Shown here piece after piece: positions 492 through 3,993 of a stretch of 11,830 nucleotides of DNA. The stretch is taken from IMG/VR virus record IMGVR_UViG_3300006057_000043. One strand, 5' to 3'. Below the pieces are notes generated by a model, which saw only the letters and a list, made by a program, of their open reading frames with translations, did not search any database and was not told where the DNA came from. Both the position numbers and the translations under genes were made by a program. Every line of letters begins with the position of its first letter. The first letter of the stretch is position 1. Source of the DNA: a virus.

Positions 492-520
492 ACCTTAGCA
501 GAGTAGACGCTGTTGGTCAA
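492..520 (-). promoter_or_regulatory. sigma-A-type promoter: TTGACC-N17-TAAGGT, 5 nt before the ATG at 485
   Basis: Minus strand reads TTGACC AACAGCGTCTACTCTGC TAAGGT CACGC ATG. One of nine copies of the same architecture. The -35 overlaps the CCA end of the upstream tRNA-like RNA. Confidence 0.5.
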
Positions 521-521
521 G

Positions 522-675
522 TTGGTGGGCCGGGGAGGCAATGATCCTCCCATCCGTGAGGGGGAAACCGCAGCGGCTCGCTTCGGGTTCTAGACCCCTC
601 AGCGACCGAAGCCAGCTCCTTCCCTTTGTCAGCTACCCGTCGGTAGCCTGCGCTCTACCCTTGAGCTACGGCCCT
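522..675 (-). ncRNA. atypical ~155-nt tRNA-like RNA (tRNA-type ends, long internal insertion)
   Basis: 5' GGGCCGU with D-arm GCUC-AAGGGUA-GAGC. 3' end is T-arm GGGAGG-AUCAUUG-CCUCCC, then CGGCCC-A-CCA, which pairs with the 5' strand. About 95 nt of hairpin-rich sequence replaces a normal anticodon/variable region. Confidence 0.3.
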
Positions 676-1149: not shown

Positions 1150-1551
1150 TTACACCGCGACCCCCTTCCTGAGGATCGTCTCCCGCTCCCAGCGCGAGTC
1201 GCTGGTGTCCCGAAGGGCGAGGGGGAGGGTGTCGAGCGCAGCGCCGATGTCGTCGTCGGCGAACAGGGCGATGGCAGTCAGCTCATCACCGATGTCGGGC
1301 TCGTAGAACGGGGTGACTGGAAGCCCCTGGCCGGCGGCGTAGTCGAAGAACTGCCGAAGCTGCTCTTCGTTCTCCACGGCGAGGAGGACCAGCGAGTTCG
1401 AGGCGGCTTCCCACTCTCGGACCATGTGTTGCTGTTCACTGGCAAACGCGATGCCAGCGTGGGTGGCCATGGTGGCCTGGTACCCAGGGCTCAGATCCTG
1501 ACGGGTCAGAACGTAGAGCTTGGGTCGGTGAGTCTAGGTGAACGTTTCCAT
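1150..1551 (-). CDS. PTH2-like (peptidyl-tRNA hydrolase 2 / Pth2-fold) protein; in-frame TAG at 1534-1536 (codon 6)
   Basis: From ATG 1551 the frame reads METFT*THRPKLYVLTRQDLSPGYQATMATHAGIAFASEQQHMVREWEAASNSLVLLAVENEEQLRQ... This is collinear with the Pth2 motifs KMVIVVRxDL...AAQxxHAA...WE...KVVVKV.DEE.L. The stretch KLYVLTRQDL lies between the TAG and the next ATG (1470), so it is translated only if the TAG is read through. The promoter at 1596-1624 places the transcription start upstream of ATG 1551. Terminates with TAA. Confidence 0.45.
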
Positions 1552-1595: not shown

Positions 1596-1624
1596 AACCT
1601 AGCACGGCCCGAGGGCCGTGTCAA
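1596..1624 (-). promoter_or_regulatory. sigma-A-type promoter: TTGACA-N17-TAGGTT
   Basis: Minus strand reads TTGACA CGGCCCTCGGGCCGTGC TAGGTT, with the spacer ending GTGC as in the other copies. Predicted start about 1585-1590, roughly 35 nt before ATG 1551. Confidence 0.45.
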
Positions 1625-3618: not shown

Positions 3619-3993
3619 CTAGGCCTCCTGGGGGTTGAGCAGGACGGCGCCGCAGAGGGCGGACAGTTCCTCGATGCCGACGCGCCTGGTGTTGTAGTAG
3701 GGCGACAGGGCGGCCATCATGCGGTCGCCGGCCGGGGCGTTGATCGTGTGGACCATGATCTGGCCGACCCAGTAGGGGTTCTCGTGGTAGGCCGTTTCCT
3801 CCAGCCAATTCACGATGGGCTCGATCGTGTCGTCATCCCCGAGGTCGTGGTCGAGCCACAGCTCGTCGAGGCGCAGGCCGGCGGAGCGCAACACGACCAT
3901 CAACTGCTCGCCGAACCAAGAGGTCCGGGCGTGGTTGACCTCACCCTCTAGCTTGAGGGTCCGCTCATCGTCGATGACCAGGATGCGCTTCAT
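3619..3993 (-). CDS. receiver-like (CheY-fold) domain protein, CPR-like (cyclic-phosphate-processing receiver family)
   Basis: MKRILVIDDERTL...LWLDHDLGDDDT...VNWLEE...VHTINAPAGDRM. Matches the ILxDDER / LDHDLG / WL..E / HSxNPxGR pattern of the phage-borne, RNA-repair-associated receiver family. Leaderless promoter. Ends in TAG. Confidence 0.55.
   Translation of the reverse strand: MKRILVIDDERTLKLEGEVNHARTSWFGEQLMVVLRSAGLRLDELWLDHDLGDDDTIEPIVNWLEETAYHENPYWVGQIMVHTINAPAGDRMMAALSPYYNTRRVGIEELSALCGAVLLNPQEA

Follow-up and report, generated by a model that had tools for sequence, protein, structure and literature searches.

Phage tRNA clusters are usually read as a codon supply or as anti-nuclease spare parts. 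At the distal end of the tRNA cluster of phage T4 lie two small stable RNAs, species 1 RNA (rnaC, 139 nt) and species 2 RNA (rnaD, 119 nt), which are encoded on the tRNA strand a few bases from the last tRNA. Species 1 RNA has a canonical T-arm (CCGGG-UUCGAAU-CCCGG) that abuts the helix in which its two ends pair, and a large non-tRNA interior. The T4 record gives no function for either RNA, and neither is known to have one. Other tRNA-shaped RNAs, such as mascRNA and the 3' tRNA-like structures of plant viruses, use tRNA-processing or tRNA-charging enzymes without decoding. The YrlA family of bacterial and mycobacteriophage Y-RNA-like RNAs (RF02553) consists of noncoding RNAs of ~150 nt in which tRNA-like D, T and acceptor modules are combined with a long protein-binding helix; in vivo, RNase P cleaves the acceptor hairpin of the Mycobacterium smegmatis YrlA (147 nt), and CCA is added to this RNA while it is bound to Ro60 (Chen et al. 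2014, PMC4201824). Here we describe a 152-nt RNA gene, hereafter the candidate, in an 11,830-nt stretch of viral DNA (IMG/VR virus record IMGVR_UViG_3300006057_000043), the whole of which we call the window. By analogy, T4 species 1 RNA appears to be closest to the candidate in kind and YrlA closest in mechanism.

The candidate was read directly from the sequence at window positions 674-523 on the minus strand, the strand of every RNA gene of the window found by ARAGORN and Rfam; a window coordinate equals 675 minus the RNA position. An initial annotation of this DNA had placed at 522-675 an RNA of ~155 nt with tRNA ends and no recognisable anticodon arm. Its location and its general description are borne out by the sequence, the predicted fold, a strict structural descriptor and a homologue in a related locus (L007); the exact extent had to be corrected. 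The RNA reads GGGCCG-UA-GCUC-AAGGGUA-GAGC-GCA-GGCUACC-GACG-GGUAGCU-GACAA-[67-nt arm]-CACGGAU-GGGAGG-AUCAUUG-CCUCCC-CGGCCC-A-CCA, and its parts are as follows.

523..674, minus: whole tRNA-shaped RNA, unit 9 of an array (sequence, fold, unique descriptor match, homologue at L007:474-624)
669..674, minus: acceptor 5' strand GGGCCG, RNA 1-6; pairs with 527-532; invariant in L007
652..666, minus: D-arm GCUC-AAGGGUA-GAGC, RNA 9-23; stem invariant, two loop differences in L007
631..648, minus: hairpin H1, GGCUACC-GACG-GGUAGCU, RNA 27-44; at the anticodon-arm position; identical in L007
559..625, minus: 67-nt long arm, RNA 50-116; at the variable-arm position; minimum free energy (MFE) folds of both homologues and RNAalifold concordant
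578..607, minus: arm core GGUCGCUGAGGGGUCUAGAACCCGAAGCGA, RNA 68-97; 29 of 30 positions the same in L007
533..551, minus: T-arm GGGAGG-AUCAUUG-CCUCCC, RNA 124-142; compensatory G126-C140 to A-U in L007
523..532, minus: acceptor 3' strand CGGCCC (RNA 143-148), discriminator A149 and encoded CCA (RNA 150-152); invariant in L007

The acceptor helix consists of 6 bp (RNA 1-6 with 143-148), and a single nucleotide separates its 5' strand from the CCA of the minihelix before it. U7 and A8 follow, as U8 and A9 do in tRNA, and the D-arm that begins after these two bases is canonical and near-identical to that of unit 2 of the array. H1 is a 7-bp stem closed by a GACG tetraloop and holds no anticodon; its G27.U44 wobble is compatible with the minus strand only. 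The long arm is made up of four helical segments with internal loops between them. The conserved pairing of its core comprises GGUCGC/GCGA(G)CC, a tandem G-A/G-A internal loop, GGG/CCC and the cap G-UCUAGA-A, an apical loop that contains a 6-nt palindrome. The T stem (6 bp, 7-nt loop) abuts the acceptor helix to give a 12-bp coaxial stack of the tRNA type. The MFE fold, at -74.2 kcal/mol, reproduces this five-way architecture exactly; its z-score is -2.9, and among 200 shuffles 1 was equally stable. The initial annotation had named two internal hairpins. One is H1, which is present in the MFE fold; the other, GCUUCGG/CCGAAGC, is complementary in the window but lies outside the MFE and consensus folds, and its pairing is broken in L007 because the 5' strand there reads GCAAAGG. 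The AUCAUUG T-loop, which had been singled out as anomalous, turns out to be normal for the lineage: genuine tRNAs of related phages have AUCGUAA (tRNA-Gly and tRNA-Asp of phage Alice) and AUCAUAC (tRNA-CUA of the related locus L019), and the L007 homologue has AUCGUUG.

We searched for this anatomy with a strict descriptor that admits Watson-Crick pairs only. It demands an acceptor plus T stack of 12 bp with a 7-nt T-loop, an NCCA end, a D-stem of 4 bp placed two bases past the acceptor strand, and a total of 100-200 nt. The sole match in the window is 674-523. The descriptor matched 1 of 1000 dinucleotide shuffles and had 0 matches in 722 kb of unrelated metagenomic DNA, which consisted of 119 chance matches (L020-L138) of an over-loose metagenome pattern. 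When G.U pairs and one mismatch were allowed, the descriptor became unspecific, with 0.7 matches per shuffled window. Two assemblies made independently, L005 (SRR5581436) and L006 (ERZ27247944), contain the same 152 nt without a difference.

Searching for helices that close onto N-CCA, we found that positions 1144-523 of the minus strand tile into nine units that end in N-CCA, with spacers of exactly 1 nt. The units are the following, identified by this tiling except where a program is named.

1144-1111, minus: unit 1, minihelix
1109-1038, minus: unit 2, 72-nt tRNA-like RNA with an AUCA tetraloop as anticodon loop; unseen by ARAGORN and Rfam
1036-1003, minus: unit 3, minihelix
1001-968, minus: unit 4, minihelix
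966-891, minus: unit 5, tRNA(CUA), amber suppressor (ARAGORN and Rfam)
889-856, minus: unit 6, minihelix
854-710, minus: unit 7, 145-nt RNA with tRNA acceptor and T-arm, without D-arm
708-676, minus: unit 8, minihelix
674-523, minus: unit 9, the candidate, last of the array

The five minihelices (33-34 nt) are hairpins of 11-12 bp with T-like loops (GUCAAAU, GUCAAAG or GGCAAG), followed by N-CCA. Two of the larger units resemble tRNAs of the same phage at their ends: unit 2 has the acceptor 5' strand UCCCCUG and the G73 of tRNA-Gln(UUG) (2699-2626), and the candidate has GGGCC...GGCCC-A-CCA in common with tRNA-Leu(CAG). Unit 7 has a UUCAACC T-arm, an ACCA end and a conserved Shine-Dalgarno-like GGAGGUGA; it has no Rfam match. 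Spacers of 1 nt also separate the bona fide tRNA-Leu genes at 3151-2815 (ARAGORN), and the candidate is therefore laid out like the real tRNAs of its genome. Of the three options raised in the initial annotation, a structured RNA with borrowed tRNA ends agrees with this register of the candidate with eight CCA-ending units and with its want of a 7-nt anticodon loop. A permuted tRNA is not supported, the gene order being the native tRNA order, and neither is an intron-containing tRNA, on grounds given below. A further case named there, that only the 3' ~45 nt accumulate and make a 'fifth minihelix', is excluded by the sequence: only the distal 5' end can pair with CGGCCC; the CACGGAU just 5' of the T-arm cannot.

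An amber-suppressor tRNA (CUA) occurs in every related array, at L007:183-257, at L017:3867-3942 and twice in L019 (2157-2231 and 2352-2423). The tRNA(CUA) of the window (966-891) has C33 in place of the universal U33. The amber codon is not globally reassigned, because TAG terminates the cREC gene at 3619.

Related arrays were located via their flanking proteins, namely the 157-aa protein encoded downstream and the Pth-like protein. Among the homologues of the 157-aa protein, L007 is the sole syntenic locus; P0002, P0003, P0007 and P0008 are not syntenic. In L007 the downstream protein is 90% identical, and we observed the same nine units at the same 1-nt spacing, with the homologue of the candidate at L007:474-624. 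Two of the minihelices are 100% identical and minihelix 1 only 74%, and unit 7, which has counterparts in L019 and L017, is 96% identical. The two versions of the candidate differ at 23 of 152 positions (identity 85%). These differences avoid the acceptor helix, the D stem and the 18 nt of H1, and just one falls in the 30-nt arm core (consensus GGUCGCYGAGGGGUCUAGAACCCGAAGCGA), compared with 18 in the flanks. When the differences are placed at random, two unchanged stretches of the observed length turn up in ~2% of cases (chance ~0.02). Where the helices do change, they remain paired: the T stem shows the compensatory change G126-C140 to A-U, and the outer arm helices vary by U61-G106 to C-G, by a one-sided A-U to G-U and, when one alignment gap is shifted in what is our own reading, by A58-U109 to G-C. 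Standard pairs fill 98.8% of the pair cells in the two sequences, as against 37-51% when the partners are slid by 1-3 columns, and RNAalifold gives the same structure independently.

We conclude that the candidate is a genuine gene for a tRNA-shaped RNA, one predicted to be stable and non-decoding. From the observed anatomy, array register and conservation pattern we infer a function, and the proposal that we favor, while judging it evenly balanced between right and wrong, is that of a non-decoding tRNA mimic, the tRNA end of which would engage proteins while H1 and the arm core offer a second surface, so that the RNA would act as an adaptor or high-affinity decoy. One transcript from the putative promoter at 1624-1596 would carry a Pth2-like gene and the array, RNase P would free the 5' end of each unit, and a 3' exonuclease would trim the single spacer base. 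For such processing of a tRNA-like noncoding RNA by tRNA enzymes, M. smegmatis YrlA provides a precedent in this host group (PMC4201824). The mature RNA would be unable to read codons, because the arm at the anticodon position is sealed and the only 8-nt loop of the candidate is the apical loop at the tip of the ~25-bp arm. A tetraloop in place of the anticodon loop recurs in unit 2 of three phages, being AUCA in the window, UUCG in L007 and UCCG in L019, and the loss of decoding would therefore be a selected feature of these arrays. The acceptor/T/D end may bind readers of tRNA ends, such as an aminoacyl-tRNA synthetase, the CCA enzyme, Pth or EF-Tu, or host toxins whose target, for modification or cleavage, is the CCA end or the acceptor stem. 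The invariant H1 and arm core may form a second specific binding surface, with the RNA serving as adaptor or decoy during infection and not as a passive spacer.

The five minihelices share the 12-bp stack, the T-like loop and NCCA with the candidate, those of the cultured phage Phabba likewise lie 3' of a Pth-like gene, and the outer part of the arm evolves fast. These observations suit an alternative in which the candidate is, like the minihelices, a passive acceptor-end decoy or processing module that would, for example, soak up host enzymes acting on tRNA 3' ends by modification or cleavage, or guide RNase P, with the arm as tolerated ballast. This we regard as rather unlikely: H1 is invariant and the arm core nearly so despite the many differences in its flanks, and the candidate keeps a canonical D-arm that a minihelix decoy does not need.

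Several points weigh against the candidate being a mimic with two binding surfaces. Covariation is thin, with two diverged sequences only and one double change in the MAFFT columns, and covariation shuffle control (a) is uninformative at n=2; with two sequences only, the comparative evidence thus amounts to support and not to proof. The identity to L007 is the same as at synonymous third positions of the neighbouring gene, so constraint is visible only in the distribution of changes. The GG expected for the elbow contact is lost from the L007 D-loop. Finally, no homologue of the candidate is detectable in the related arrays of L017/L018 or L019; being missing from the L017 array and undetected in that of L019, the candidate is therefore not essential to the array.

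With its acceptor helix, D-arm, T-arm, discriminator and CCA in native order, the candidate is most readily compared with tRNA. Like class II tRNAs (Leu, Ser, Tyr) it has an acceptor/T stack, a D-arm, a discriminator with CCA and an extra arm before the T-arm; it differs from them in the loop at the anticodon position (4 nt on a 7-bp stem, versus 7 nt) and in the size of the extra arm (67 nt versus ~10-20 nt). Rfam returned no tRNA match at the gathering score or at E <= 10, ARAGORN with default settings returned none, and the Rfam scan gave no tmRNA, intron or Y-RNA assignment either. With introns allowed and the threshold at 80%, ARAGORN did return a tRNA-Gly(acc) with a 65-nt intron and exactly the ends of the candidate. 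We rejected this solution. Its anticodon stem, GCAGG/GCUGC, has a G.G mismatch, could form only at the cost of the conserved H1, and is impossible in L007. The ARAGORN result and an overall divergence similar to that of synonymous sites are what would be said for a disrupted or intron-containing tRNA gene, either a decoder after splicing or a decaying pseudogene. However, no Rfam intron family matches, ~95 nt is too short for a group I or II intron, all helices stay paired through compensatory changes, and the tetraloop replacement recurs in sister units of three phages. We therefore consider a broken or interrupted tRNA gene very improbable.

The candidate shares tRNA-like ends with tmRNA, for which we took as criteria the G3.U70 of alanine identity, the absence of a D stem, a tag-peptide frame, pseudoknots and a length that is usually >250 nt. 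The candidate has G3-C70, a canonical D stem that tmRNA lacks, 152 nt, and neither a tag frame nor pseudoknots, and ARAGORN -m (80% threshold) and Rfam reported no tmRNA. The same facts bear on whether the candidate is an aminoacylatable carrier, charged for example by leucyl-tRNA synthetase (which needs A73 and the core, not the anticodon), that would act as an amino-acid donor or sequesterer or enter the ribosome like tmRNA. Such a carrier would make sense of A73, of the acceptor strands resembling those of the phage tRNA-Leu(CAG), of the class II-like extra arm, of the encoded CCA and of a Pth2-like ester hydrolase in the same operon. Against this stand the missing tag frame and G3.U70, the lack of a tmRNA call at relaxed thresholds, an acceptor similarity that amounts to 5 G/C pairs only, and a D-arm of class I type, and we find the idea improbable.

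By position and predicted architecture, the candidate matches the type of T4 species 1 RNA, a class without a formal family. Its placement at the end of the tRNA-type array is like that of rnaC and rnaD, and it shares with rnaC a T-arm that abuts the end helix and a large non-tRNA interior. It differs in that rnaC has neither a canonical D-arm nor an encoded CCA, whereas the candidate has both together with a tetraloop hairpin. No sequence similarity is detectable: a covariance model of the candidate, R1, finds nothing at rnaC or rnaD in the T4 region. Both T4 RNAs are absent from Rfam, and since rnaC is missing from it, the silence of Rfam on the candidate says little about its class. The mascRNA and plant-virus structures are unrelated to the candidate in sequence and origin and are not units of a tRNA array.

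A YrlA RNA runs in the order terminal stem 5' strand, T-arm, closed acceptor hairpin, D-arm and terminal stem 3' strand, and its termini lie in the long helix. In the candidate it is the acceptor stem that is open and holds the termini, the long arm is closed, and the modules are circularly permuted relative to this order. Once cut by RNase P and given its CCA, YrlA has just the open acceptor end that is written into the candidate gene, and the module order of the candidate (D, small hairpin, long helix, T, open acceptor-CCA) is that of processed M. smegmatis YrlA, at 152 versus 147 nt (PMC4201824). This likeness raises the possibility that the candidate is a Y-RNA-type adaptor in native tRNA order, in which the arm would dock a Ro60/TROVE- or vault-type protein and the tRNA-like end a second factor, and that the array as a whole would be a toolkit of tRNA-end mimics directed against host immunity that targets tRNA 3' ends. 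The D-arm of the candidate fits the YrlA consensus GUAGCUCA..GGUAGAGC. After permutation, CCCGAAG in the arm core (RNA 88-94) occupies the place of the YrlA motif GNCGAA(N0-1)G and matches it at 6 of 7 positions; the first motif base is wrong, and CCGAAG is common, with 14 copies in the window versus 9 expected. Ro60 and YrlA are both encoded by cluster C mycobacteriophages, the group with the closest homologues of the Pth-like protein in the phage collection, and a major vault protein (MVP) gene lies ~4 kb upstream of the candidate. However, the Rfam match to YrlA scores 15.8 bits (E = 3), far short of the 69 bits of the gathering threshold, and the matched stretch (652-702) joins the T-like half of the fifth minihelix (708-676) to the 5' strand and D-arm of the candidate. 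The match is thus an artefact of the junction between two units, and tandem tRNAs are known to give false YrlA matches (PMC4201824). As the linkage expected of YrlA we took a Ro60/TROVE gene within ~4 kb on the same strand; no TROVE domain was found among the 15 larger window open reading frames (ORFs) scanned with Pfam, nor among the ORFs scanned in L017/L019. On score, module order and Ro60 linkage we rejected membership of the YrlA family, and a permuted Y-RNA-type adaptor seems to us improbable. Separately, a sub-threshold YrlA-like match (33 bits) lies at L019:7948-8015 in a second tRNA cluster.

Returning to the arrays, the Pth-like protein is 71% identical in L017/L018 and 65% in L019. 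Both have arrays of the same kind, composed of minihelices, tetraloop tRNA-like RNAs, CUA tRNAs and an RNA of the 145-nt type. L019:1835-1940, a 106-nt RNA with a similar layout that shares CACGGAUGG, scores 7 bits only and was not counted as a homologue of the candidate. At its start (1-28) the L019 contig carries a tmRNA 3' end (Rfam E = 5e-4). The Pth-like gene directly precedes the similar arrays in L017, L019 and Phabba. With model R1, no additional homologue emerged from L001-L019, T4, Alice or Phabba; the weak matches were ordinary tRNAs recognized through local ends. An alignment of the four 'rna2' homologues was too poor to interpret. Comparison of the array at the nucleotide level with 50,697 phage records gave no match, nor did four exact or gapped patterns and an array-start pattern in IMG/VR, the arm-core pattern in JGI metagenomes, or two genome-contig scans; homologues of the MVP yielded only bacterial loci or contigs not reaching the array.

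Units of the same kind are present in cultured cluster C mycobacteriophages. In Phabba (NC_054714, 32796-32920; L140:4283-4407) a series begins a few bases past the Pth gene with a minihelix ending in ACCA and continues with a D-less tRNA-like RNA ending in ACCA, a second minihelix ending in ACCA and a tRNA-Arg. In Alice (L141:3798-4046) tRNA-ended RNAs occupy the space between the Pth gene and a CUA suppressor tRNA. The tRNA-ended units of both phages are annotated as 'tRNA-undetermined (NNN)', as is part of the Phabba array, or are unannotated, and we found no description of the array units in the searchable literature; annotation pipelines currently miss such units or label them 'tRNA-undetermined'. 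The candidate adds to the tRNA-like stable RNAs of phage tRNA clusters, a class that is little understood. As a second, independent example with clearer tRNA anatomy, it may help with the puzzle of the T4 species 1 and 2 RNAs, and a compact operon of RNAs that have tRNA features minus decoding, beside a Pth-like gene, points to tRNA mimicry as a function in itself. The class is experimentally testable because Phabba and Alice, cultured phages of M. smegmatis, carry similar units (Myrna has a homologous Pth gene).

The gene upstream of the array and the promoter-like motifs of the window are as follows.

1150..1470, minus: Pth2-like gene, 106 aa (weak PTH2 matches; mycobacteriophage homologues)
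1596..1624, minus: promoter-like TTGACA-N17-TAGGTT, 5' of the Pth2-like gene; putative start of the transcription unit
492..520, minus: promoter-like TTGACC-N17-TAAGGT of the next gene, 2 nt past the CCA of the candidate; conserved in L007
8074-8046, 7378-7349, 4644-4616, 3332-3304, 1624-1596 and 520-492, minus: the six copies of the motif, mostly ...TGCTAnnnT

The Pth2-like gene ends, with its stop codon, 6 nt before the array starts. Its product gave consistent matches to Pth2 in Pfam, NCBIfam and PHROGs, all below the curated cut-offs, and is 44-47% identical to the 'peptidyl tRNA hydrolase' of the cluster C mycobacteriophages Myrna and Phabba. A PDB sequence search returned nothing, and the AlphaFold model (pLDDT 48) was too poor to use. 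A generic scan for sigma-70 promoters and terminators found nothing in the window. With a custom pattern, TTGAC[AC]-N17-TAnnnT, we found the six copies listed, all on the minus strand and none on the plus strand. Several lie only ~6-10 nt 5' of a start codon, suggesting leaderless mRNAs, as in Actinobacteria. The copy at 520-492 marks the 3' limit of the RNA unit, and the promoter, the 106-aa gene and the nine RNAs probably form one transcription unit.

Elsewhere, the window encodes a cREC (cyclic-phosphate RNA-repair) domain protein, many tRNAs and the vault protein homologue.

4714-7311, minus: MVP homologue, 865 aa (MVP shoulder domain, E = 1.5e-25)

This protein is ~41% identical to proteins of huge phages (462-735-kb genomes) and ~60% identical to proteins in bacterial genome assemblies. 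The proximity of its gene is the one observation that bears on the candidate as a possible vault RNA, a class defined by physical association with an MVP particle and for which no sequence model applies. Genes for tRNAs or tRNA-like RNAs adjoin the MVP gene in the window, L014 and L001. Beside the phage MVP gene of L001, at L001:9300-9900, two stretches that read as permuted tRNA modules flank a tRNA-Val; each reads as a T-arm, a closed acceptor hairpin and a D-arm in YrlA-like fashion and is preceded by a repeated GGTTACATG, and neither received an Rfam call at the gathering score.

Within the tRNA genes of the window, a 24-nt microhelix (ACCGGAG-CCCUAC-CUCCGGU-G-CCA, 2724-2701, minus) has tRNA-Asn and tRNA-Gln as its neighbours and is separated from each by 1 nt. 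The tRNA-Gln(UUG) gene encodes a second CCA after the first (...GCCACCA; 2631-2623, minus). Two unassigned minus-strand stretches of ~100-135 nt inside the tRNA cluster, 4318-4184 and ~4600-4503, may be further tRNA-ended RNAs; the latter terminates in ...GCCCACCA directly before tRNA-Pro.

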